A DNA stretch of 64,000 nt from Candidatus Sumerlaeaceae bacterium (GCA_049968255.1 JBMFRB010000001.1:128001-192000); one strand, 5' to 3'. Shown: positions 1,052 through 14,221, counted from the stretch's first letter. Numbers and translations are program-made. The notes: a model not told the origin generated them from the sequence alone.

Positions 1052-1864
1052 TCAGTAGAGGAACCACTCCCCGACGGCGGAAGATAAAGCTGGGGTGACA
1101 TCTTGCCACGCTGTGCCAACGCGGAGTTCGTCGAGCTCAAGCGAGAGCAAACTATTACCTGCTCCCTGGCGCACGCCAACACGTCCTAGCGCCGTCAGGT
1201 CCTGAAGGGCAGCTTTGGTCACGTCCGGTGTGGGCGATGCGGATTGGCCCAGAGGCGGATTGACCCAGAGATAGGTCATATCGTCGTTTACATCGCCATT
1301 GAACGCGTAGGCGACGACGACGAAGACGGGGACTTCCACATCGAACTGTGAACTTCCCCACTGCGGCGTGTCGGTGTTTGCATTTGCGAGACCGAGCTGA
1401 AATTTCGATGCGCTGCTCCCCTGGCGGACGTAAAGACGTGCGCGAAAATCTTGAGCTCCTGCGCCGGCGCTTGAAAAGTGAAAGATATAGTCCCCGGTGG
1501 TATTGCCAGGATTGCTGACTTTGAGCACAAACGATGCGTAAACGCTAGCGCTGCTTTGATTCGTCACGTCATGGCCGGCATCCTGATAATTGCTTCCGTT
1601 GCCAAATGTGATTTTTCCACCGGACGAAGGCGGCAGTCCGAAATAGCTTAGCGAACTTGTGGCGACCTGGATCGGGGAACTCGTGCCTGTGCCAGTTTGA
1701 GTCCAGTCTCCTTGGCCAACAAGGTTGCCGCTGCCGTAGGCAAATGGCTCGTGCCAAGGCAGGGATTGTTGGGCGAAAGCACTGGCCGTGGCAAGAATGG
1801 CTACAGAAAAAAGCGAGCCCAGCCATATAGTGCCAAAATTGCAGTTTTGCTTCTTATCACGCAC
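1052..1864 (-). CDS. Secreted beta-sandwich-like protein, paralog 1, C-terminal tag SSAVGEWFLY
   Basis: GGAGG SD then GTG at 1864; signal peptide ending ASAFA-QQ; clear similarity to 2926-3753 and 5090-5890 (GNLVG, NGSxYxD, VYASF, W[IV]NP, RQG, LDELR..T.W..VT). Confidence 0.8.
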   Translation of the reverse strand: MRDKKQNCNFGTIWLGSLFSVAILATASAFAQQSLPWHEPFAYGSGNLVGQGDWTQTGTGTSSPIQVATSSLSYFGLPPSSGGKITFGNGSNYQDAGHDVTNQSSASVYASFVLKVSNPGNTTGDYIFHFSSAGAGAQDFRARLYVRQGSSASKFQLGLANANTDTPQWGSSQFDVEVPVFVVVAYAFNGDVNDDMTYLWVNPPLGQSASPTPDVTKAALQDLTALGRVGVRQGAGNSLLSLELDELRVGTAWQDVTPALSSAVGEWFLY

Positions 1865-2145
1865 TGCGTCACCTCCGAGAAACACCGTTCCCGTGCATCA
1901 GAAGATGAAGACGCACTCGCGGCGCCTAACTTTGCCGACCTCGTCGCTCACCTTATCGTCAGCGAGGGCTGGGCTTAGCAACCTTTGCTAGATAATCGCA
2001 GGGCACAAAGCAAGGAAAATAGACAGGAAACTTCGTCACATGACATGAGGCAACCACGTAACCAACAAAACGAGATGCGCCCCGCGCCACACGCTATTCG
2101 CCTTTGCGCTGCGAACCCGCGACATGCCCCAACGCCTGCGCCACG

Positions 2146-2769
2146 CTAAAACCCAAGAAAAAGCTTGGCGCGATTCCAAAATGTATTGGGGACGGGGAAG
2201 TACTTCCCAGACTCTCGACAAATCGTGTCGGTCAATAAAGGCTTGAGCCGTTGAAGATCGCGCGCGTTTTTCTCCAGCATTTCTGATTTTTTATTCACGC
2301 GATTGGCAATCTCAGCATATAGGGCACCTATGCCGACCACTGGTATCGAGCGGCCATGCAGAAGGGCACGCGTTTCTCCGAGCACGTGCGGCTCCCACCG
2401 AACGATGATGCGAGGGGTCACCGTTGCAAGCACTCCATTCCACAGCCGCCGGAAAAACGTAACCTCCACCGATGCACCGCGAAACAGGAATTCAAGTTTG
2501 TGGGAGGTTTCTTTGATGAGGGCGTGGCCAAACTGTTCGCGCACCCAAGGACGATCTTTCTCGTCCGCGAGAAGATCGATATCCTTGTGGGACCGGCTGG
2601 TGCCCGTCAATGCATCAATGGCCCAGCCCCCATGAACCCACACTCTTACGCCTCCTTGCTCCATTCGGTCAAGAAGGGCAAAGAGTACTTCTACGAGAAC
2701 GCCTTGCGCCTCGGTCGCTGTAGCCTGCGGCAATCTCTCTGCTTGCTCTGATGGAGTGGAATAATCCAT
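2146..2769 (-). CDS. Nucleotidyltransferase, aminoglycoside-2''-adenylyltransferase (AadB/LinA-like) family
   Basis: WVHGGWAIDALTG...RSHKDIDL matches the GGWAxD...R.H.DID motif of this family. Confidence 0.75.
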   Translation of the reverse strand: MDYSTPSEQAERLPQATATEAQGVLVEVLFALLDRMEQGGVRVWVHGGWAIDALTGTSRSHKDIDLLADEKDRPWVREQFGHALIKETSHKLEFLFRGASVEVTFFRRLWNGVLATVTPRIIVRWEPHVLGETRALLHGRSIPVVGIGALYAEIANRVNKKSEMLEKNARDLQRLKPLLTDTICRESGKYFPVPNTFWNRAKLFLGF

Positions 2770-2925
2770 AAAATGATAATTTGTTCTGCTCTCCTGAAGC
2801 TTGCTATGCCGAATCTTCTGCCGACATCGTATTCACAAGCTACCTACAGTAGACCAAGGAAAAATGCTCCTAAGTTCTGTAAGCGAAAACAAACAGGTGA
2901 TCTCAAAGGCTGCCCAAAAGTGGAA

Positions 2926-3753
2926 TTATTCCACGGTCCAAGCAGCTAGCACAATCGGCAACGTGACCTCTGACCATGACGTCGACAGGCGCAACTCGTC
3001 AAGCTGAAGGCTCAGTCCTGTGCTCGATTGTCCCTGACGCAGGCCGATGCGGCCGACGTACGACAGCTCGGAATTTGTTGTCGCCTGGAGAGTCGCTGGC
3101 GGGGGAGTCTCTTGCTTAAGGGCCGGGTTGATCCACAATGCCGCGACATCGTCGTTCGTCGCGGGATTAAACGTGTAACCGACCACAAGAAGAAGTGGCG
3201 TGCCCACATTATACTCCACAGAATCGTAGACTGTTGAGTCTGTGGCGGCGTTGCGTACGCCAAAGATGACTTTACTAGCGCTCGAGCCACGCTTTGCGTA
3301 GACTATAGCATGAAAATCTGTTGCGCTGGTTCCTGCGCTGGAGAAGTGCAGAAAAGCATCGCCCGTTGTTGTTCCCGGATTGACGACGTTGACAACGAAC
3401 GACGCGTAAACACTCCCAGAGACCTGCGGTGTCAGATCGAGGCCGACATCTTCATAATTTGAACCATTGCCGAGACTCACTTTTCCGCCCGTCGCGCCTG
3501 GCAGTCCTGCATAGGACAGTGATCCGGTGCTCACTTGCACGGGCGAGACACTTTGTGAGCCCGTTCGCGTCCAAATCGCTGTTCCATTGCTCTGCCCCAC
3601 TAGGTTTCCCGTTGCGTAAGCAAAGCCTTCGTAAAAGGGCAACGACGCTTGCGAAAACACATTGGCGTAGGAAAGAGAAAGTAAGATCATAAAGCTCGCT
3701 ATTACACAACGGCTGGGTCGTGCTGAGGACGAAGAGATAAGTTTTGCACTCAT
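2926..3753 (-). CDS. Secreted beta-sandwich-like protein, paralog 2, alternative C-terminal tail VTLPIVLAAWTVE
   Basis: ATG at 3753 (MSAKLISS); signal peptide ending NVFS-QA; same conserved domain as paralogs 1 and 3. Confidence 0.8.
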   Translation of the reverse strand: MSAKLISSSSARPSRCVIASFMILLSLSYANVFSQASLPFYEGFAYATGNLVGQSNGTAIWTRTGSQSVSPVQVSTGSLSYAGLPGATGGKVSLGNGSNYEDVGLDLTPQVSGSVYASFVVNVVNPGTTTGDAFLHFSSAGTSATDFHAIVYAKRGSSASKVIFGVRNAATDSTVYDSVEYNVGTPLLLVVGYTFNPATNDDVAALWINPALKQETPPPATLQATTNSELSYVGRIGLRQGQSSTGLSLQLDELRLSTSWSEVTLPIVLAAWTVE

Positions 3754-4084
3754 ATGCCACCTTCCGCTATAAGCTCTGCGAGCGCGAAGGTGACGCGAAC
3801 CATCGAGACAAGGCACAGACATTGTCGCTGGGCGTGTGCCAAGCTCTGGCGAGCTCTTCACATCCGCGCAGATTTGTGAAGCAGGAAACAAAATCGAGAG
3901 TTTTACATGCAAACAAAATATACAGGGGACAAATCCCCCCTCTACAAAGGTTACGCGGTGGGCCACTGAGCGCAAATTCCTAGAAGCTCAGACGAGCACC
4001 GTCATTACGACAAAGGGTATGTGAAATGCGATCGCGGACGCGAGTTGTCTGCCGTGGCCCACGGCACCTCAGGCGGGTGTGATT

Positions 4085-4714
4085 CTAGTTGCGTACCCGT
4101 TCACGAGCGCGCTGCATAATTTCGGCGTCGAGCAGTTTCACGGACTCTGAAAGTTGACGGTACTTTTCTCGCAGCTCGTCTGGTGAACTCGCCGCAAGCA
4201 GCTCTTCGGCCATTTTCGATAGACTTTCGAGTTTTTCTTGAAGTTCGGCCTGCTCGCGGTCGCTGGCGAGCAGGCGCGCCCCCATGTACTTGTCTTCCAG
4301 GGCCAAGATCGCGGCCTGAACGGACTCCACCTGCTGGGTCGTCACGCGGTCGGTGATGGTTACCGGGATTTTGTCGAGCGCATCAAGCACATCCTGAATG
4401 GGAGAGGGCGCGGCCGTCGTTGTCGCCACAACACCCGCTGAAGTCTCTTGCGTTTCCCCATGCTTGGTTTGTGCAGCTCCACTCAGGCGAGCAGTGGCTC
4501 GAGTGTCCGCCTGAGGGCTCTGCATCTTTTCCACGTGTGCTGGCTTGGCTTTCGATTTCTCGAAGTGTTCTTGCGAGGATGCGGACTGGCCCACACCGCT
4601 TTGTTTACCTTCCCCACAACCGCCTAGAAACAGAGCGGTGATAAATATTCCGCACAACAACTCGCCTGGCGCCGAAAGGCGGTACATCCACACCATAAGG
4701 ATCAAAACCTCCAC
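4085..4714 (-). CDS. Putative lipoprotein with low-complexity linker and helical C-terminus
   Basis: Hydrophobic stretch ending in lipobox LGG-C; start codon uncertain (MYRLS possible). Confidence 0.6.
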   Translation of the reverse strand: MEVLILMVWMYRLSAPGELLCGIFITALFLGGCGEGKQSGVGQSASSQEHFEKSKAKPAHVEKMQSPQADTRATARLSGAAQTKHGETQETSAGVVATTTAAPSPIQDVLDALDKIPVTITDRVTTQQVESVQAAILALEDKYMGARLLASDREQAELQEKLESLSKMAEELLAASSPDELREKYRQLSESVKLLDAEIMQRARERVRN

Positions 4715-4938
4715 GGGGAAAGTGTCCGCGTGCTACTTTCACTTTGGACTCTGGCGGGGGTGGGTGGACGCTGCAAGAGAATTGTGCGCCGGATGCCCTG
4801 GCCGGCGGAGCGCAAAGGACTTTGTCACTGCAATCAAAACCGGACTTGTCACGTCTCCGGAAGGTGCAGTCTTTCGCAGAGGTCCCTAAGCTTGGCATTG
4901 GTCAAAGGCTGCCAATACAGACTGTAGAGCTGGAACAC

Positions 4939-4972
4939 AAAAAAGTGCGTGCGGGGAAATGCCCGCACGCAC
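4939..4972 (-). terminator. Rho-independent terminator of 5090-5890
   Basis: GTGCGTGCGGG / CCCGCACGCAC stem followed by T6 on the minus strand. Confidence 0.8.
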
Positions 4973-5089
4973 AGTAATGTCTTCTTGTCTCTTCCCTCAA
5001 CGACCGGCGTGGCCGTTGCGCCGGTCGAACTTCCTACGCGACGAGTGAGCCCACCGAAACGTCCGACGGCCCTGCTCGTCGGCGGACTC

Positions 5090-5890
5090 TTAGTACAAGG
5101 TCCAGTCGTCCACGCCGGCATTCGTAGGCGTGACATCAGTCCAGGACGTGGAAACCCGCAATTCATCCAACTCAATCACCTGAGAGGTAGAGGAGCCCCC
5201 TTGGCGCAGATTGACGCGTCCCACTGCTGCGAGATCCTGCGATGCTGTTGCAGTCAGATCCGCAGAGGGGGGCGAAGTCTGCCCCAGCACGGGATTGATC
5301 CACATCGAGCTGCTGTCATCGCCAGGAGCGAAGTTGTAAGCCACAACGACGAACACGGGCGTGCCCACAGGGAGATCGTTGCTCTGCTGGATCGTGTCGG
5401 AACTTCCGTGGCGTAGTCCGAGCTTGAAGTTCCCCGATGTAGTACCAAGCTGAACATAAACGCGAGTCCGGTAATCTGATGAGCCTGTTCCCGCTGAGGA
5501 GAAATTGAAGATATAGTCGCCGGTTGTAACCGTTCCCGGATTCACTACATTGAGAATAAACGAGGCGTAAACGGTTTGGGTGGTCGAGGCGACATCAATT
5601 CCTGGGTCTTCATAGCCGCTACCATTGAGCAGTTGGACTTTGTTCCCCTGGGAAGCAGGGAGCCCGCTATAGGCGAGGGAGCCGCTGAGGACCTGCACGG
5701 TCGACGATGTATTTGTCCCCGTCCGTTGCCACGTGCCGCCAGCAATTGTGTTGCCCACGAGATTGCCTGTAGGATAGTTGAAATGTTCCACGAGGGGAAG
5801 CGACGCTTGCGCCGAGGCGAGAGAAGCGCCCGCGACAAAGGTCGCGACAGCAACTACACTTTTCCACACGGAGGCGAGATGTGCTTTCAT
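5090..5890 (-). CDS. Secreted beta-sandwich-like protein, paralog 3, C-terminal tag NAGVDDWTLY
   Basis: AAGGAG SD; signal peptide ending SLASA-QA; shared domain with paralogs 1 and 2. Confidence 0.85.
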   Translation of the reverse strand: MKAHLASVWKSVVAVATFVAGASLASAQASLPLVEHFNYPTGNLVGNTIAGGTWQRTGTNTSSTVQVLSGSLAYSGLPASQGNKVQLLNGSGYEDPGIDVASTTQTVYASFILNVVNPGTVTTGDYIFNFSSAGTGSSDYRTRVYVQLGTTSGNFKLGLRHGSSDTIQQSNDLPVGTPVFVVVAYNFAPGDDSSSMWINPVLGQTSPPSADLTATASQDLAAVGRVNLRQGGSSTSQVIELDELRVSTSWTDVTPTNAGVDDWTLY

Positions 5891-7019
5891 CAGAGTTTCT
5901 CCTTATCGTGATTTGCGAAAGCAGGGACGGTTATCTTACCATTTTCCGCGGTTCTGCACCGGAGTACGGCCACTCTCCGGAGCACTTGCGCACGAAAAAG
6001 AACGCCGTCCTCTGCTTTCAAAACCCTGCAGTAATTCTTACGCCATTTGCATATATTCAAGTCAAAATGCCAGATTCGCTCTCTTGGATGGCTTTCACCA
6101 TCGTGTCACAACAAAATACGGGGCGGTGCGCAATGCCCTTCCATATAGGTTTTTCAGCAGTGTATCAGCCCAAAACCTCCGCGCCGAGCGTGCTGTGAAG
6201 TCGGTGAGCGTCGCAGCGATCAATGCGCGCGAGGCCCGCCTTGGTGCAAAAGCGAGTTCTCCGCGCACGCAAAACACGTACTGGCCGCGGCTGTGGTGAT
6301 TATCATGTTATCAAGATTATTAGATATGTGTGGATGAGAAGACGAGTAAGGATTACCTAGCACGGGTTGGGGATGCGGCGCAGATTCCCACCAGACATGT
6401 CATGCAAGCACAAAGAGACACCATAAGCGAACAACAAGCTATGCGCACGGATGCCCATCGCCTGGGGGAATAACTTGGAAAAGCTAATGAAAATTCTCGG
6501 GGGGTAGTGGATGCACTATGGCATGAGGGCAAGATCTCCAAGATCTCTGTGACTTTTTATGATGAGGAGCAAGGTAGCTGAAAAAGTGACACAGGGGTGA
6601 CATCCAGGAGCTCGAATACCAATGAGCCTAGGCCGTAGCGAGATTGACGGAAAAACGGAGGGGACGGCGCTTATTCGCTTCGCCGGTCAATTTTTTTCGA
6701 TTTTTGTCCGGTTAGCATAGACAGGCGTGAGGGCAGCAAGGGAAAAAACAGACCGGCGACAGGGCAGACCATACGAATCATGCATTGCCAAACTGCGATT
6801 TAGCTGGAGTCGGAGCGAGCTGCTGTGCTGCGCTTCATTTTTTTTGTCATTAGTGCAAAATTGGGTTGACTGACGCCGTAAGTTTGACATAAGGATACCT
6901 GTTGCGTTGAAGGAAGAAGCAACAAATTTTCGCAGCGTTTGCCCACGGGCGTTGCGCGTCTGCTTCTTCTTAGCCACGCGATGATTACACAACAAAACCA
7001 TGAGAAAGGAGTACGCCTC

Positions 7020-8684
7020 ATGAAAAAGCAATTCCTGGCGATGGCGGGTGCGCTCGCAGCCACCGCTTCCTTGTCATTCGCCATACCTTTCGACAACTCA
7101 GCTGGCGGCCCAGTCGTGGCCACGGTCGGCCCAAATGCTGGTGACGACTACACGTCGCTTTCGGCGGCTGCAGCGGCATTCAGCGCGGTGTCGGGCGGCA
7201 TCAACCGCGAATGGACGCTCCAAATCACGGGCGACCTGACCGAGACGACAGCCAGCTACTTCGGCAACACGTTCGGGCCAGGTGCGAAGCTGATCATCAA
7301 GCCCGCACCAAGCACACAACCGACGATCACGTTCAGAATTCCAAGCACCCCTTCGGGCATTTATGGTGACGTGGTGTTTGGTGTCAGCGACGGGAACGTT
7401 CCTACCGCCGCAAACGACAGGCCGTCCGATGGCAACTACGTGATTGACGGCTCGAACACGCCGGGGGGCACCACGCGCGACCTAACCTTCCAGATTCCCT
7501 CCACGCAAAATGATCCGATGCTGCGTGTGATTCGCATCTGGGGCGACACCAAGAACATGGTGATCAAGAATATGAAGATCATCACGCGTGATAGCAGTGG
7601 TAACTCCCATTGCATCGGGCTGGCTAGCGGGCAAACGAGTGATGCCACGCCAGTTCCTCGACGCGTCCAAGGATTGCTCATTGAGAACTGCTATCTCGAG
7701 GCTATTCCTGCGGGCACGAGTGGCTTCGGTGTCGACTCGAGCCTCACAGGAAACAGCACACTGCCGGCTGGACAGTGCCAGGAGAACATCATTGTACGCA
7801 ATTGCGACATCGTAGGCAAGCAGCGCGGCATTTTCCTGCACATGGCGTCGGGGACCCTGGAAAACAACAGGATCTCGGTGGAGCAGGGAACTGGGGCAGG
7901 AGTCTCTTATGCTGGCATCTTCCCGTTCCAGAACAACACGACGCCTGGTGGGAGTGTGATCATTCGCAACAACGTGGTAAAGGTCACATGCCCTTCGACA
8001 TCGGCTGGGCAGGGGGCTTACGGGATTCTTTACGACAGCGGCATGAATGGAACTGCGGTGGATATTTACAACAATATCCTCAAGGATTTCAGTTTCACCT
8101 CTGCGTCAGCAGTTGACCTGATCTACCGCGGCATCAGCGTTGGCACAGCCGGCTCGACCGCAACAGTAGAGCATAACTCGTTAGATCTGGCGGCCAACAA
8201 CACCGCAGTGAGCGCTGCCACGGCGGGTCGAGTGGCAGGAATTGCGATCCCGGTGACGATGACGACAGCAACGGCTGCCGTGCGGAACAACATCGTGCGC
8301 ATGGGCAATACGGGTGCGACGGCAACCTGCATCTACCTGGCGGCAACAACGAACGTGATCAGCGAGGGTAACGACCTTGTTCCTAATGGTTCGCCAAATA
8401 CAGGGCGAGTTGGGGCCACAGCCTATGCCAGCTTGGGGGATTGGCAAGGTGCTGGATTCGATCTGCCGGCATCGGGTGCTCAGAGTGTGGATCCGTCGTC
8501 GGTGGTTCCGGCGTGGGATGCCAATCTGCACTTCTCGCTGAAGCCGGTCGGGCTTGGCACAGTGGCCAGCTCGACGGTTCTTACGGACGTTGACGGGGAT
8601 GCTCGTCCGGCTACAGGTGCGTATCCTGGTGCGGATGAGCCACCTGGTCCGGCAGCAGGCGTGGCTGACTGGGCGCTCTTCTAA
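7020..8684 (+). CDS. Secreted right-handed beta-helix protein with choice-of-anchor-Q-like C-terminus and tag AAGVADWALF
   Basis: AAGGAG SD, MKKQFL signal peptide ending SFA; repeated I.NN/IEN/VRN beta-helix rungs; TDVDGDARP...GADE motif. Confidence 0.8.
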   Translation: MKKQFLAMAGALAATASLSFAIPFDNSAGGPVVATVGPNAGDDYTSLSAAAAAFSAVSGGINREWTLQITGDLTETTASYFGNTFGPGAKLIIKPAPSTQPTITFRIPSTPSGIYGDVVFGVSDGNVPTAANDRPSDGNYVIDGSNTPGGTTRDLTFQIPSTQNDPMLRVIRIWGDTKNMVIKNMKIITRDSSGNSHCIGLASGQTSDATPVPRRVQGLLIENCYLEAIPAGTSGFGVDSSLTGNSTLPAGQCQENIIVRNCDIVGKQRGIFLHMASGTLENNRISVEQGTGAGVSYAGIFPFQNNTTPGGSVIIRNNVVKVTCPSTSAGQGAYGILYDSGMNGTAVDIYNNILKDFSFTSASAVDLIYRGISVGTAGSTATVEHNSLDLAANNTAVSAATAGRVAGIAIPVTMTTATAAVRNNIVRMGNTGATATCIYLAATTNVISEGNDLVPNGSPNTGRVGATAYASLGDWQGAGFDLPASGAQSVDPSSVVPAWDANLHFSLKPVGLGTVASSTVLTDVDGDARPATGAYPGADEPPGPAAGVADWALF

Positions 8685-9158: not shown

Positions 9159-10451
9159 ATGAGCAGGGTGAATTGGATCGTTCATCTGGATGGGGATGCT
9201 TTCGCAGTGGCTGTGGAACGGCGGCGTGGGCGGGCACCGGCGGAGGGCGTTGCTGTGTTGGTGGGCAACGAAGCCGACGGGCGCGGCACGGTAAATTGCG
9301 CCTCCTATGAGGCAAGAGCGAGGGGGGTGAGCAATGGGGCTCCGCTGCGCTGGGCGATGTGGCGTTTGGGGAACAAGGCCGTGGTGGTGCCGCGCGATCT
9401 GCTCGCGTACGAGCAGGCTGCGCGGGAGGTGTTCGAGTGGCTACGCGGTACGGCACCTGTCGTGGAGATGATTGGCCTCGATGACTTCTTTCTTGATCTC
9501 ACGGGCTGCGATCGCTGGTGCGGCGGCGATGTGGCGCGATGGGTGACGAATCTTCTTTTGCGCATGCAGAGGAAACTAGGCCTGCCATTTTCGGGGGGCG
9601 TCGGCACAAACAAGATTGTGGCGAAGCTGGCAAGTCGTGTGGCCAAGCCGGCAGGAGTGACGACGGTTCCGCCGGGAGCGGAAGCGGAATTTTTGCGTCC
9701 GATGGCGGTAGGGACTGTGCCCCAACTCGAGCCGCAGGTCGTGCGCCAGCTTGAAGAACTCGGATGCAGGCGCGTGGAGGAGGCGTTGGCGTTGGGACGC
9801 GAACGGCTGTGCCTGCTTTTTGGCGACTCGCGTGGAGAACGGCTGTGGAGTATTCTTGAGGGCAAGTGGCACGAGCCTGTGCGCTCAACACATTTGGCTC
9901 CCCGCGTGGAGGCGGAATATCTTTTCGAGCCGGATACATGCATGCCGTCGCTGCTGGCAGCGGCTTTACGGTGGATGGTGGAAAAGGTAGCGTGGGAATT
10001 GCGCCAAGGTGGCCAGCGTTGTGCGGCACTGGTTTTCACAGGAATTTATTGCGACGGAGGAACGGTGCGTCGGTGCATGCGGCTAGCTTATCCCACGGAC
10101 CGCTCCCATGAGCTTGCGGACGTGGCGCGGCCGTGGGTGGAATTGATGCTCAAGCGGCGTGTGCGCGTGCGGCGCCTTCATCTCGAGGCCCGAGCGGAGG
10201 GTGGCGTCGTGATGGACGATTTCTTCGAGGAGCAGCGACTGAGGCGCACAAAACACCTTTACGAAGCAGCGGATCGCGTGCGGGAGCGCTATGGACTGGC
10301 CAGCCTTGTGAGTGCGGCTGCGTTGCCGGTGGTGTGGGAACTGAAAAAACAGGGCACCGCTTCAGGGCGCAGGAAAAAAGAAACCCCACGACAACGATGG
10401 GCGGTCAAAGGGGCAGAGGGAAAGGCGTCGGGCAAAAGGGAGACCCCATGA
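9159..10451 (+). CDS. dinB: Y-family DNA polymerase (DinB/Pol IV-like)
   Basis: VHLDGDAF, CASYEARARGV, GLDDFFLD, GVGTNKIVAKLAS..KPAG motifs; AAGGAG SD. Confidence 0.85.
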   Translation: MSRVNWIVHLDGDAFAVAVERRRGRAPAEGVAVLVGNEADGRGTVNCASYEARARGVSNGAPLRWAMWRLGNKAVVVPRDLLAYEQAAREVFEWLRGTAPVVEMIGLDDFFLDLTGCDRWCGGDVARWVTNLLLRMQRKLGLPFSGGVGTNKIVAKLASRVAKPAGVTTVPPGAEAEFLRPMAVGTVPQLEPQVVRQLEELGCRRVEEALALGRERLCLLFGDSRGERLWSILEGKWHEPVRSTHLAPRVEAEYLFEPDTCMPSLLAAALRWMVEKVAWELRQGGQRCAALVFTGIYCDGGTVRRCMRLAYPTDRSHELADVARPWVELMLKRRVRVRRLHLEARAEGGVVMDDFFEEQRLRRTKHLYEAADRVRERYGLASLVSAAALPVVWELKKQGTASGRRKKETPRQRWAVKGAEGKASGKRETP

Positions 10452-13400
10452 ACAGGAGCCAGGGAGAACGATTTGCGTTCGTCCATCTCCACGTCCACAG
10501 CTACTACAGCTTTTTTGCTTCTACCCTTTCGCCAGCGGACATTGTAGCGTGGGCGGCTGGCAAGAAACCGGTGTCGCCCCCTTGCACATCCTCCGAGGAG
10601 CCGATCGGAGATGTTCTTCCTCCGCCACGAAACAGGATTTTTGCTGCGGCTGAAGCTGAACAAGAGGAGGGCAAAGGTCGGACGGCAGTGGGAGGAGGGG
10701 CTATCGCGCTGACGGATACCAATGCAATGACTGGGGCCGTCGAGTTTTACCAGGCGGCACTGGCGGCTGGGATAAAACCTCTTCTTGGTGTGGAGCTCAC
10801 TCAGCCTTTGGCGCAGGAACGGGAACTTTTCCGTCGGCGTGTTGGCAGCGCGCTGCGGGTGCCTACCCAAGAATATGTGGCCGAAGAAGCAAGCGACGAG
10901 AACGACGGGAGTGGCTCGCAATCGCCGGCGCTGTGTCATGGCGACCTTGGCCGGCGCATTGTGGCTCTGGCACGCAATCTCGAGGGCTACCATGAGTTGT
11001 GCGAGCTGACCACTCAGCGGATGCTGGATCCTGACTTCGATTTGCTCCGCCACGCCGAGACCTTTAGCGGCAACGTGGTGGTGCTGAGCGATTGGCCAGA
11101 AGCTTTGGCGGCAATGCGTGAGCGGGAGGCTGGCACGACGTTTGGCCTCTTGGTTCCGGCACGGAGCCGACGCATACGCAACAGAAGTGTTTACGAGCAG
11201 TGCCGGCGGTTTGGTCTGCCTTGCGCGATGGGTGGCGACGTGCGCATGGCAAGGCCAGAGGATGCCCGGCTGCTGGCGCTGTTGCAAGCGATGCGTGAGC
11301 TGACGACGTTGGCACAAATCGAAGAACGCGGCGCCGTGCCCAGAGAAGAGGGTTTTTTGCAAACTGGCGAGCGGATTGCCGAGTTTTTTAGGCTGGGGCG
11401 TGGACACGCGCTGGAAAGGGATTTGCGCGAGGCGATGGCGAACACTGTGCGCATCGCAGAGATGTGCGATTGCCGGTTGCCGCTTCGCGAGTGGAAATTT
11501 CCGAAATTTGCTGAAGGCGCCACGAGCGGGATCGAGCGGCTGCGGGCGCTGGCAAACACCGGACTGCACCGACGCTATGGAACTCCTCCCCCACCGGAGG
11601 CGGTGCAGCGGCTGGCCCACGAACTGGAAATCATCGAGCGCCTTGGCTTCAGCGATTACTTTTTGCTCGTGCATCGCATTGTGGAGGAGGCGCGGCGTCG
11701 CGGATTTTTCACACTGGGGCGCGGGAGCGCGGCGAACTCGATCGTCACTTATGCGTTGGGGATTTCGCATGTGTGCCCGCTGCGCCACCGGCTGCACTTT
11801 GAACGTTTTCTGAATCCTGAGCGGAGTTCGCCCCCGGACATTGATCTGGATTTCTCGTGGCGCGAGCGCGACGAGATTCTGGAATGGTGCTTTGATTTTT
11901 TTGGGGCAGAGAAAGTGGCGCTGATTTCCACGATCCAGACGCTGCGCTTGCGGCAGGCGGTGCGCGAGGTAGGCAAAGCTTTGGGTCTGGCGTCGGAGGA
12001 ACTCAAGGGATTCAACCGGCTGAAAAGCGTAGGCTACGTGCTGGAGGAAAGGGAGAGTGAAGGAAAAGCCAGTGTACGTCGGCGAGAACTCGCAAGAGAG
12101 GAACCATGGCGGAGTATCTTGGCGTTGGCCCAACGCCTGACTGGATGGCCACGGCATCTTTCCATTCATTGCGGCGGTGTCGTCATTGCACCAGAGCCGG
12201 TGAGCCGATGGGTGCCCCTCACCCACAGTGCGAAAGGGTTTGTGATCACGCAAATGGACATGGTGGCAGTGGAGGAGCTGGGGCTGGTGAAAATGGACTT
12301 GTTGAGTAATCGCTCGCTGGGGGTGCTGAAGGACGCCCTGATGGCCGTGCAAGTGCGCGAGGAAGAATTTTCAAGAAGGCGCGCACGCGAGGGAAACGTG
12401 GAAAATGCCGTGGCGCAACCGGGCGGGGACGAGTGGGGAGGAAAAATTGGATGCGGCCAAGCGAGGAATTGCGAAAGCGGCGACGAGAGCTGCAAAGCGG
12501 TGGAGCAAACGAACGAGAAGCGGGCGGCCGTGCTAGCGCATGAAGCAGCTCGGATGAAACTGGCTGGCACACGCCGCGGCACAAGTGTGGCGCTAGCAGG
12601 ATTGCTTGAGCAATTCGAGGAAGAATTGCCCGCCACGCAACGAACTCCTGCTATCGACGGGAAAAGAGTGCGAGAGATTGTGTTCGATCTCGAGGCTATC
12701 AGCGGTGATCCCGCGACGCGCGCGCTCATCCACGAAGGAAGAACCATGGGGTGCTTTTATATCGAGTCGCCTGGGATGCGTGCGCTTTTCGAACGGCTGC
12801 GTTGCAAGGAGTTCGCAGAAGTGGTGGCGGCAAGCTCAATCATTCGGCCTGGGGTGGCGGAGAGCGGGATGATGGAAGAATATATTGCGCGACATCGGGG
12901 CGAGGCTCGAGGTTCGTCGGTACATTTTCCACGCGTGCAGGCCCTGCTGAGGCAGCTTCTGCCCGAAACGTATGGTGTGATGGTCTATCAGGAGGATGTG
13001 CTGCTCGTGGCCCATGAAGTGGCGGGAATGACGTACGGTGAGGCGGATTTGCTGCGGCGGGCAATGAGCGGAAAAACGCGCTCAGGCGAGGCAATGGAGG
13101 CTGCACGGGAGCGCTTCGTGCACGGAGCCAGGAAACGCCACGGGCTCACACGCGAGGAAGCGAACGAAATCTGGCGTCAGGTGGCGAGTTTCGCAGGATA
13201 TTCTTTTTGCAAAGGGCATTCGGCAGCTTTTGCAGTGCTGAGTTATCAAGTGGCTTACCTGAAAGCGCATCATCCGGCGGAGTTTTTTGCAGCCGTGCTG
13301 GACAATGGCGGAGGTTTTTATGGGCCGCAGGCGTATTTAGAGGAGGCGCGACGGTGGGGCTTGAGGACGCTAGGCCCTTGCGTGAACGAGGGCGATGTCC

Positions 13401-14221
13401 ACTTCCGCGGGTGCACGGAGCGCGTGAGGAACTTGAGGGCAGAAGGATGGGTGCGCGTGGGGTTGAGCGCTGTGAGCGAAGTGAGCCGGGAGACGTGTCG
13501 GCGCATCGTGGCAGAGTGCAAGCGGGGCGGTCGATTCACGTCGCTCCAGGATTTTCTCACACGCGTGAGGCTTGAGCCTCAGGAGGCGCGTCAACTGATT
13601 CGGGCAGGCGCGCTCGACAGCCTGCAGGCGATCGCCCCTCCATTTCTCTCGGCGCGCCAACGCTGCCAACTGCGCCAGGACTTTCTCATCGAACTGGAAA
13701 TTCTTTTACGCGATTATGCTCCACGGCGGACAGAGGAAAAATGTCTTGCACTTGGAATGGAGCAAGACTTCGAGCGACACAACATAGCAAAGATGCGCCC
13801 GCGAGCAGGCATGCCCCTGAGCGAGTTCGAGGCTCACGGACGCTTGTGCCAGTGGGAAATGGAAACATTGGGCTTTATGGTGAGCGGACATCCCCTGGAT
13901 TTCGTGACTACTCCGCGTGGCACGATCGCTGCACGCGAGATTCGGCGCTATGCGGGACAACGCGTGCAGATGGTGGGGTGGGCCATCGCAGCTAAAGAAC
14001 TCGCGGCATCGAATTCGGGCCGGCCAATGAAGATGCTCACCCTCGAGGATCGTACAGATACGTTCGAAGCTGTGCTGTTTCCCCCGGTATATGCGAGGCT
14101 GGCCCCACGAACGCTGAGCTGCGGCCCCTATCTCGTGCGGGGACGTGTGGACATGCGCCTAGGCTCTCCCACCCTCGAGGTCGAGAATCTCGAAATCCTA
14201 CCGATGCTGCTGAGGCAATGA
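10448..14221 (+). CDS. dnaE2: Error-prone DNA polymerase III alpha subunit (DnaE2 type)
   Basis: True start MNRSQ overlaps the dinB stop (ATGA); PHP HLHVHS, RGSAANS, PDIDLD, SIHCGG, KMDLL, FYIESPGM, YSFCKGH, OB fold TLEDRT. Confidence 0.9.
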   Translation: MNRSQGERFAFVHLHVHSYYSFFASTLSPADIVAWAAGKKPVSPPCTSSEEPIGDVLPPPRNRIFAAAEAEQEEGKGRTAVGGGAIALTDTNAMTGAVEFYQAALAAGIKPLLGVELTQPLAQERELFRRRVGSALRVPTQEYVAEEASDENDGSGSQSPALCHGDLGRRIVALARNLEGYHELCELTTQRMLDPDFDLLRHAETFSGNVVVLSDWPEALAAMREREAGTTFGLLVPARSRRIRNRSVYEQCRRFGLPCAMGGDVRMARPEDARLLALLQAMRELTTLAQIEERGAVPREEGFLQTGERIAEFFRLGRGHALERDLREAMANTVRIAEMCDCRLPLREWKFPKFAEGATSGIERLRALANTGLHRRYGTPPPPEAVQRLAHELEIIERLGFSDYFLLVHRIVEEARRRGFFTLGRGSAANSIVTYALGISHVCPLRHRLHFERFLNPERSSPPDIDLDFSWRERDEILEWCFDFFGAEKVALISTIQTLRLRQAVREVGKALGLASEELKGFNRLKSVGYVLEERESEGKASVRRRELAREEPWRSILALAQRLTGWPRHLSIHCGGVVIAPEPVSRWVPLTHSAKGFVITQMDMVAVEELGLVKMDLLSNRSLGVLKDALMAVQVREEEFSRRRAREGNVENAVAQPGGDEWGGKIGCGQARNCESGDESCKAVEQTNEKRAAVLAHEAARMKLAGTRRGTSVALAGLLEQFEEELPATQRTPAIDGKRVREIVFDLEAISGDPATRALIHEGRTMGCFYIESPGMRALFERLRCKEFAEVVAASSIIRPGVAESGMMEEYIARHRGEARGSSVHFPRVQALLRQLLPETYGVMVYQEDVLLVAHEVAGMTYGEADLLRRAMSGKTRSGEAMEAARERFVHGARKRHGLTREEANEIWRQVASFAGYSFCKGHSAAFAVLSYQVAYLKAHHPAEFFAAVLDNGGGFYGPQAYLEEARRWGLRTLGPCVNEGDVHFRGCTERVRNLRAEGWVRVGLSAVSEVSRETCRRIVAECKRGGRFTSLQDFLTRVRLEPQEARQLIRAGALDSLQAIAPPFLSARQRCQLRQDFLIELEILLRDYAPRRTEEKCLALGMEQDFERHNIAKMRPRAGMPLSEFEAHGRLCQWEMETLGFMVSGHPLDFVTTPRGTIAAREIRRYAGQRVQMVGWAIAAKELAASNSGRPMKMLTLEDRTDTFEAVLFPPVYARLAPRTLSCGPYLVRGRVDMRLGSPTLEVENLEILPMLLRQ

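Follow-up and report, generated by a model that had tools for sequence, protein, structure and literature searches.

A recurrent C-terminal tail of about eight residues as a candidate sorting tag on exported proteins of Sumerlaeota and Hinthialibacterota

Background

Short signals at the C-termini of exported proteins have led to the discovery of the sortases, the exosortases, rhombosortase, type IX secretion (T9SS) and the myxosortases. Here we describe a tail in the same position, found in a 64,000-nucleotide stretch of DNA from Candidatus Sumerlaeaceae bacterium (contig C1, positions 128001-192000, of genome G000, an assembly of 3.12 Mb in 31 contigs), which is referred to as the window. 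Three proteins encoded in the window end in SSAVGEWFLY, NAGVDDWTLY and AAGVADWALF, and an earlier note on this DNA had proposed that these endings, called Y-type tails below, form a portable sorting tag. The analysis reported here suggests that the tail is probably an undescribed address label on exported proteins of two uncultured phyla.

The closest described relatives are the tripartite signals LPXTG, PEP-CTERM, GlyGly-CTERM and MYXO-CTERM, which are handled by sortase, exosortase, rhombosortase and myxosortase, respectively. Like these signals, the tail lies at the extreme C-terminus, occurs in multiple copies with at least three near-invariant residues, and is carried by unrelated proteins with signal peptides; in homologs, it starts at the very residue at which PEP-CTERM starts. 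Unlike them, it has neither a transmembrane segment nor an arginine cluster, and the whole signal comprises only 8 to 10 residues. Seven attributes of small C-terminal sorting signals are given in one published account (10.1101/2023.06.07.544157), and, as they are worded there, five are seen in the tail, namely extreme C-terminal position, many copies per genome, near-invariant residues, signal peptides and unrelated carriers. The other two are a transmembrane segment after the motif (0 to 1 residues follow) and a basic cluster (there is only a single R, in one dialect of a family denoted f4), and it is by these two attributes that a membrane-embedded sorting enzyme is implied; their absence from the tail agrees with what the earlier note had said. 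Exosortase and sortase are both missing from the genome (see Results), and a membrane-embedded cleaving enzyme cannot be the reader of the tail.

The C-terminal domain (CTD) of T9SS substrates (PF18962/TIGR04183) is likewise appended to the C-termini of hydrolases and adhesin-like proteins that bear signal peptides, and it replaces the tail in distant homologs of both window families. According to two reports, this CTD is a folded, Ig-like domain (PMC4804311, PMC11285876). In contrast, the tail is a stretch of 8 to 10 disordered residues, and no tagged protein matches PF18962 or TIGR04183. Because the tail has neither a membrane-spanning step nor a folded domain, its reader must differ from sortase-like enzymes as well as from T9SS.

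Other systems are more distant. The beta-signal of outer-membrane proteins (OMPs) is the last strand of the barrel, with alternating hydrophobic residues and an aromatic end, and is read by BAM. The tail shares with it an aromatic terminal residue and hydrophobic residues just upstream, and would also be read in a diderm periplasm; however, its cargo consists of soluble jelly-roll and beta-helix proteins, it forms no strand, and its conserved positions are -1, -2, -4, -5 and -7 (counted from the last residue). Some substrates of the type I secretion system (T1SS) have an extreme C-terminal motif, in which an acidic residue is followed by hydrophobic ones. This motif is uncleaved and comparable to the tail in its shortness, position and order of residues, but T1SS substrates have no N-terminal signal peptide and bypass the periplasm, whereas the tagged proteins carry Sec signal peptides. 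PTS1 (SKL) and KDEL consist of a few C-terminal residues on unrelated folded proteins, and they are read by receptors and left uncleaved; the likeness is one of working only, as kingdom, compartment and sequence all differ from those of the tail. Finally, the WxL domain (PF13731) of Gram-positive surface proteins is a larger folded domain with two WxL motifs that binds the wall non-covalently. The tail resembles it in having W-x-L near the C-terminus, whereas none of 18 whole tagged proteins has a Pfam match to it.

Results

Tagged proteins of the window

The three open reading frames (ORFs) and their tails were found where the earlier note had placed them. Two encode secreted beta-sandwich proteins of concanavalin A (ConA)-like (LamG-like) type on the minus strand. 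The first has 277 amino acids (aa) and was delimited by its ORF and signal peptide (1052..1885, tail SSAVGEWFLY and stop codon at 1052..1084); the second has 266 aa (5090..5890, tail NAGVDDWTLY and stop codon at 5090..5122). They are paralogs with 50% identity in the family alignment. The third is a secreted right-handed beta-helix protein on the plus strand, of 554 aa when counted from the Met of its signal peptide (7020..8684, tail AAGVADWALF and stop codon at 8652..8684); the frame is open from 6939, and the Met at 7020 is the likely start. Sec-type signal peptides are present on all three proteins, as had been claimed. A further beta-sandwich paralog on the minus strand (2926..3753, with the start placed at the Met ahead of the signal peptide) ends in LPIVLAAWTVE-stop, which we call an E-type tail. 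None of these four proteins matched a Pfam or NCBIfam family, and the scan of the beta-helix protein returned a single sub-threshold match, to the para_beta_helix repeat. The likeness to choice-of-anchor Q that had been suggested for 6939-8684 was not borne out, as no NCBIfam model of that name matched at E<=1 or at E<=0.01.

Recurrence of the tail in the genome

We searched the genome for V-x-[DE]-W-x-L-[YF]-stop as a DNA pattern, GTNNNNGANTGGNNNYTNTWYTRR, and used the reversed pattern as control. There were 12 matches compared to 0 for the control. The tails use different codons at synonymous sites; it is thus the peptide that is conserved, and no DNA repeat is involved. When all open frames of at least 150 aa were considered (1.49 million residues), V.[DE]W.[LIVMF][YF] was found 12 times at the C-terminus and 4 times internally, with two of the four internal ones only one residue off the end. 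The 928,189 residues of 2,167 called ORFs contain the shorter core W.[LIVMF][YF] 314 times, so that 0.73 occurrences are expected at any fixed position; the core stands at the exact end of 12 ORFs, one residue short of the end in 8, and two or three residues short in 0. The extra final residue of the 8 is E in five, Q in two and D in one. The recurrence of the tail at C-termini is far above chance. Near variants such as VGNWKVY, VTEWAAY and VESWDKF are also present in the genome. ORF calling was mechanical in these counts; one tagged gene is truncated by a contig end and another was dropped by the greedy ORF caller. The motif thus extends well beyond the three genes in which it was noticed, with about 20 instances in this genome and hundreds over two phyla.

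For a description of the tail itself, 33 tails were chosen for a terminal W-x-[LIVMF]-[YF]. The W at -4 and the Y or F at -1 are fixed by this selection, although both are seen independently in the homolog families described below. The remaining positions are V at -7 (32 of 33), D or E at -5 (31 of 33) and L at -2 (29 of 33). The tail can be written as [A/S/T]-x-V-x-[D/E]-W-x-L-[Y/F], where one more residue may follow ahead of the stop. The linker of Pro, Ala and Ser that had been proposed to join tail and protein holds for the beta-helix protein, whose linker is Pro/Ala-rich, but not as a general rule, as residues -28 to -10 of the 33 tagged proteins show no clear bias towards Pro, Ala or Ser.

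Cargo

Scans against Pfam and NCBIfam indicate that the tagged proteins of the genome are mutually unrelated. Besides the ConA-like and beta-helix proteins, they include a GH18 chitinase (1046 aa), a GH57 enzyme with CBM53/CBM25 (983 aa), an S8 subtilase that also has a P-domain, a PgaB-like deacetylase that carries Golvesin_C, an fn3 protein, a protein with choice-of-anchor X in three copies (L008:1-1371; NF041940, 100.2 bits where the cut-off is 25), a protein related to the NF038122 metalloproteases that scores under the cut-off, and several proteins without any family. The claim that the tail is portable over unrelated secreted proteins is therefore supported by a wider cargo than that of the window.

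To judge signal peptides, we used visual inspection as well as a crude rule. By eye, nearly all tagged proteins have an evident signal peptide. By the crude rule, 15 of 18 tagged ORFs pass, compared to 756 of 2149 other ORFs (P = 4e-5 in a one-sided Fisher test), in a lenient test that 35% of all ORFs pass and that is supportive only. Of the three tagged ORFs that fail, two show a signal peptide by eye, and the third is incomplete because a contig end cuts it. The tail is thus not found equally on cytoplasmic proteins, an outcome that would have spoken against a sorting tag.

Predicted structure of tail and carriers

AlphaFold2 models of the 5090-5890 protein and of the beta-helix protein were built with family alignments. 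The former has a mean predicted local distance difference test (pLDDT) score of 91.1; over its last six residues the average is 45, and these residues form no strand of the sandwich. The latter has a mean pLDDT of 93.2, with residues 546-554 below 50. Since pLDDT drops below 50 at the end of both otherwise confident models, the tail appears to be a flexible appendage on two unrelated folds, ConA-like and beta-helix, and not an integral strand of either domain. In a Foldseek search, the beta-sandwich model matched concanavalin-A-like lectin/glucanase jelly rolls with modest TM scores of 0.3 to 0.5, among them alginate and glucuronan lyases, the carbohydrate-recognition domains of Emp46/47, and TtX122.

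The tail in the place of known sorting signals

Homologs were collected for the 5090-5890 beta-sandwich protein (51 sequences) and for the beta-helix protein (53 sequences). Among the 51, 31 have the Y-type tail, 11 the E-type tail LPV[AT]LS.[WF]..E and 2 a YYW.FE variant; the others end in a T9SS CTD (3, by PF18962), in PEP-CTERM (3, two by PF07589 and one by eye) or otherwise (1). The PEP-CTERM homologs, P0049 to P0051, read DELRVGSSWADVTPVPEP, followed by a transmembrane segment and an Arg cluster, and the stretch that they have in common ahead of the PEP motif is DELRVG.SWADVTP. Sumerlaea members of the family read DELRVSTSWTDVTPSNAGVxDWxLY-stop. PEP-CTERM and the Y-type tail therefore start at the same residue, as both follow the same DELR...VTP last strand. 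The ending DELR..T.W..VTP, which the earlier note had mentioned as common before PEP-CTERM tails, is in fact seen there in these three homologs.

The beta-helix family gives a similar picture. A conserved DxDGxxRPxxGAxPGADEP is followed by varying tails, such as AGVADWALF, GVRDWSLQ, VADWSLLND, VADWTVLEN, GWSLYH, SWNLYR and GWGLYE, or the E-type endings LPVELTGFSIE and VPVTVSGFAID. The most distant homologs end in a T9SS-type CTD (P0101 by Pfam, P0102 to P0104 by eye). The replacement of the tail by known sorting signals is the strongest argument for a role in sorting. By the source names of the close homologs, the genome belongs to Candidatus Sumerlaea/Sumerlaeaceae.

The E-type tail, LPV[AT]LS.[WF]..[ED]-stop, is a second tail type in its own right, which replaces the Y-type tail at orthologous positions in two families. 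In addition to the window paralog at 2926-3753 (minus strand), it is carried by an Exo_endo_phos protein and by an FAD oxidoreductase with Golvesin_C; E-type loci elsewhere in the genome are C8:83538-84599 and C1:118386-120971 (L010, L002).

Taxonomic range and dialects

The totals below for Sumerlaeota, the 'Ca. Hinthialibacteria OLB16' phylum (Hinthialibacterota) and Planctomycetota are sums over per-genome tables. The genomes are mostly incomplete metagenome-assembled genomes, and each DNA pattern covers one dialect of the tail. The 75 species genomes of Sumerlaeota gave 296 matches compared to 18 for the reversed control, and within the family to which the window belongs, all 13 genomes had between 7 and 19 matches. 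In 35 genomes of the OLB16 phylum there were 452 matches compared to 13, spread over 34 of the 35 genomes with up to 28 per genome; the OLB16 genome itself had 6 compared to 0, while three unrelated genomes were at background. A sample of 61 Planctomycetota genomes showed no excess (11 matches, 17 in the control).

A stricter form, A-G-V-x-D-W-x-L-Y-stop, was found 22 times over 185,579 species genomes. Ten of these matches end long ORFs: nine of the ten in Sumerlaeota/Sumerlaeaceae, where the ORF is open over the whole 209-aa flank, and the single one in 'Candidatus Hinthialibacteria bacterium OLB16'. For the 11 matches in other taxa the frame is open over 2 to 42 aa, and these matches are attributed to chance; together with the tenth match of Sumerlaeota the range is 2 to 46 aa.

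The tail differs between lineages. Tails from two OLB16-phylum genomes, of which twelve stretches of 20 kb were covered, read [G/E]-T-x-V-x-[D/E]-W-S-L-[Y/F], whereas Sumerlaea tails have A or S at -9 and mostly G or A at -8. Sumerlaeota families f2 to f8 and f16 are apparently tag-free by the main DNA pattern; however, S8 proteases of two seemingly tag-free genomes end in AWELYR and SWNLYR. When W-x-L-Y-R-stop was searched, the f4 genome gave 11 matches compared to 1 in the control and f2 gave 3 compared to 2, with f7, f8 and f16 at background. The absence of the tag from these families is thus in part an artefact, because f4, and perhaps f2, uses a W-x-L-Y-R-stop dialect. The beta-sandwich family was not found in five genomes of the seemingly tag-free families. 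The tail thus evolves by lineage, and an aromatic residue four or five positions from the end and a hydrophobic residue two positions later are kept.

Databases and known machinery

The statement that no described sorting-signal model matches the tail was upheld with Pfam and NCBIfam, both for whole tagged proteins and for isolated ends. In whole proteins the tails had no match, and 12 isolated C-terminal ends of 39 residues had none at E up to 10, within what the filters of HMMER let through. A literature search for spellings of the motif returned nothing relevant from a coverage that mostly leaves out subscription journals, so that the tail may be described elsewhere. The word 'C-terminal' does not occur in the main-text portions of the papers on Sumerlaeota (PMC8092238) and Hinthialibacterota (PMC9324843), as distinct from their supplements.

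Exosortase (PF09721) had no match in G000 and was found in 9 of the 75 Sumerlaeota genomes, including all 7 of the tag-poor family f8. Sortase (PF04203) had no match in G000 either, in a search in which positive controls matched. The T9SS CTD (PF18962) is not in G000 and was found in 3 of the 75 genomes, and SprA (PF14349) had no match in G000 and none in the control genomes. Judged by its genes the organism is diderm, with TonB/ExbB, a lipid A acyltransferase-like gene and three secretins, and it encodes a complete operon of the type II secretion system (T2SS) as well as a type IV pilus operon.

Discussion

We read the tail as a linear tag that would be recognised on folded Sec substrates by a component of the envelope and would serve in their sorting or surface retention, and assign this reading a probability of roughly 0.55. 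The N-terminal signal peptide would take the protein across the inner membrane, and the protein would fold in the periplasm. The flexible tail could then be bound by an envelope component that passes the cargo over the outer membrane or, more likely, holds exported cargo on the cell surface, and in this way polymer-degrading enzymes and binding proteins would stay with the cell. We propose that the tail does for these proteins what PEP-CTERM or the T9SS CTD does for their homologs elsewhere. As T2SS is present and needs no linear signal, we lean towards surface retention or display and away from export, although the evidence does not separate the two.

Several points weigh against a sorting or retention tag. 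No reader was found for the tail; the 105 ORFs that neighbour 14 tagged loci of the genome include no recurrent gene, and all four reader candidates that were tested failed on co-occurrence or adjacency. The T2SS operon could export folded proteins without any tag, and export may therefore not need one. The extra terminal residue (E, D or Q; R in f4) and the drift of dialects are tolerated, which leaves room for a less specific role. The enrichment in signal peptides depends on crude ORF calling and a crude test. Finally, sequences and models show the motif, its position and enrichment, its cargo, its disorder, its range and its replacement in homologs, but that it is read, where (by an outer-membrane export or docking machine, as the earlier note proposed, or elsewhere) and to what end we infer.

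A more specific form of this reading is that a periplasmic or outer-membrane receptor of a new pathway reads the 8-residue tail in Sumerlaeota and Hinthialibacterota and exports its cargo or fixes it to the surface, with the dialects (+E, +R and E-type) co-evolving and the receptor pathway taking the place of the T9SS and exosortase systems in these phyla. We advance it tentatively, at rather less than even odds. A reader that strictly requires a free carboxylate, as a PDZ-like one would, is disfavoured because an extra terminal residue is tolerated.

The tail could instead be a self-sufficient peripheral anchor with no protein reader, in which a patch of Trp, Leu and Tyr settles on the outer-membrane interface, lipopolysaccharide, peptidoglycan or an S-layer after export, for example by T2SS. 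Small non-covalent wall-binding modules work in this manner in other bacteria, and W, L and Y/F, the conserved residues of the tail, partition into membrane interfaces. Tolerance of the extra residue and of dialects would suit such an anchor, as would the fact that no reader gene was found in a genome with T2SS available for export. Nevertheless, V at -7 (32 of 33) and D/E at -5 (31 of 33) are nearly invariant over two phyla and would be needless for a greasy patch of four residues, eight residues offer little binding energy on their own, and the lineage-wise change of the tail fits a co-evolving protein partner better. We consider an anchor of this kind unlikely.

Tail-specific proteases and PDZ domains of the HtrA type read hydrophobic C-termini. 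The tail might accordingly be a recognition site of a periplasmic or extracellular protease, either a C-terminal degron or a pro-peptide whose removal matures or activates the cargo, and not a signal of location. Its hydrophobic end is of the kind that these proteases read, it is predicted to be exposed and disordered in the models, and the acidic residue before W could mark a cut site. It is hard to explain, however, why a degron would stand on some 20 unrelated useful enzymes per genome in two phyla; homologs hold sorting signals and not degrons at the same place, and the E-type and +R dialects have no acidic residue at -5. In our judgement a protease site is improbable.

A similarly slim chance is left to a donated strand or docking peptide, by which tagged proteins would be joined to each other or to a scaffold in a multi-enzyme surface assembly, comparable to dockerin and cohesin at a much smaller size. 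The cargo of polysaccharide- and protein-degrading enzymes and lectin-like binders would be apt for such an assembly, the lectin-like protein has adjacent Y-type and E-type paralogs in the window, and tagged genes are clustered in Hinthialibacterota genomes; but no scaffold bearing repeats of a receptor module was noticed close to tagged genes, and the models of the two cargo folds do not indicate a vacant groove.

To regard the tail as a described signal (PEP-CTERM, IPTL-CTERM or the OMP beta-signal) that has degenerated or been truncated and is handled by known machinery is a very improbable reading and a largely refuted one: the tail does stand at the exact position of PEP-CTERM in homologs and has an aromatic end as OMP beta-signals do, but neither 12 isolated tails at E<=10 nor whole proteins matched NCBIfam or Pfam, a transmembrane segment and a basic cluster are lacking in a genome without exosortase and sortase, two real IPTL-type examples have no Trp and the suspected likeness to IPTL-CTERM was dropped, the hydrophobic positions -1, -2, -4 and -7 do not alternate as in a beta-signal, and likely OMP C-termini of the genome look different by eye.

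If the tail is a sorting or retention tag, its lack of the membrane anchor or folded domain that the known machines need means that its reader should reveal a different way of placing proteins in diderm bacteria. The tail also provides a simple sequence rule for the set of surface or secreted enzymes (chitinases, amylase-like enzymes, proteases, lectins) of two phyla with a global distribution, neither of which has a cultured member known to us. Should the tag turn out to be portable, it could serve as a very short tag for protein display.

Rejected candidates and neighbouring genes

The candidates considered as reader of the tail were as follows. A TPR-secretin of 1576 aa (L039:6566-11296, at C2:23566-28296 of G000) has N-terminal TPR repeats and a secretin domain, and lies by a PilM-like gene in an exopolysaccharide-type locus. 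TPR domains can read C-terminal peptides, but the conserved part of this protein, its C-terminal two thirds, is present in 70 of the 75 Sumerlaeota genomes including those of all tag-poor families, and the candidate was rejected. Secretins as a whole were rejected as well, since 75 of 75 genomes have them. A Dpy19-like GT-C glycosyltransferase, which would C-glycosylate Trp at W-x-x-aromatic, was not found in any of five genomes, including the tag-positive G005 and G090; in G000, a 755-aa membrane protein with weak likeness to the eukaryotic Dpy19 C-mannosyltransferase family (PF10034, E=3e-9) is encoded beside a tagged gene (L013:2724-4991, on C25). An exported protein of 239 aa encoded after the T2SS secretin (L038:11741-12460) is present in the tag-poor genomes G069, G011 and G017 and was not found in the tag-rich G090.

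Prepilin-like proteins of about 210 aa, with the N-terminal GFTLIELLIVVAII, form a family of 21 copies in G000 and of at least 113 and at least 150 copies in two OLB16-phylum genomes (G090 and G081). In G000, 2 of them lie within 3 genes of a tagged gene compared to 0.8 expected (P=0.19), and the Hinthialibacterota stretches have 3 to 4 adjacencies where about one is expected by chance. Because the family has so many copies, this adjacency is not significant, and the prepilin-like neighbours were not retained as candidates.

Elsewhere on contig C2 of G000, a gene for a SurA-like PPIC-type rotamase of 538 aa (L003:7404-9020) lies between two tagged paralogs with the tails GVSDWNLY and AVKDWNLFE, which is an isolated case. 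SurA-type chaperones prefer aromatic-rich peptides. In the tag-poor genome G069, which belongs to the same class, contig C1 has at about 4286467-4301796 (L040, L045, L057) an open frame of 7597 aa with at least three S8 protease domains; other S8 ORFs of that genome have 2800 to 3100 aa.

The window has further genes around the tagged ones. Between the tagged paralogs, a 207-aa protein with a match to aminoglycoside 2''-adenylyltransferase (PF10706, E=1e-12) is encoded at 2146-2769 on the minus strand. A 209-aa ORF at 4085-4714, on the same (minus) strand as the E-type and Y-type paralogs between which it sits, has a lipoprotein-like signal (LGGC) and a C-terminal half that looks like a coiled coil, and it has no Pfam family. 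Downstream of the beta-helix gene, a Y-family polymerase-like gene with IMS and IMS_C domains (9159-10451, plus strand) is overlapped by an ORF of 1362 aa (10133-14221, plus strand) that by eye looks like a DnaE-type polymerase, and the layout of the two resembles an imuB-dnaE2 mutagenesis cassette.

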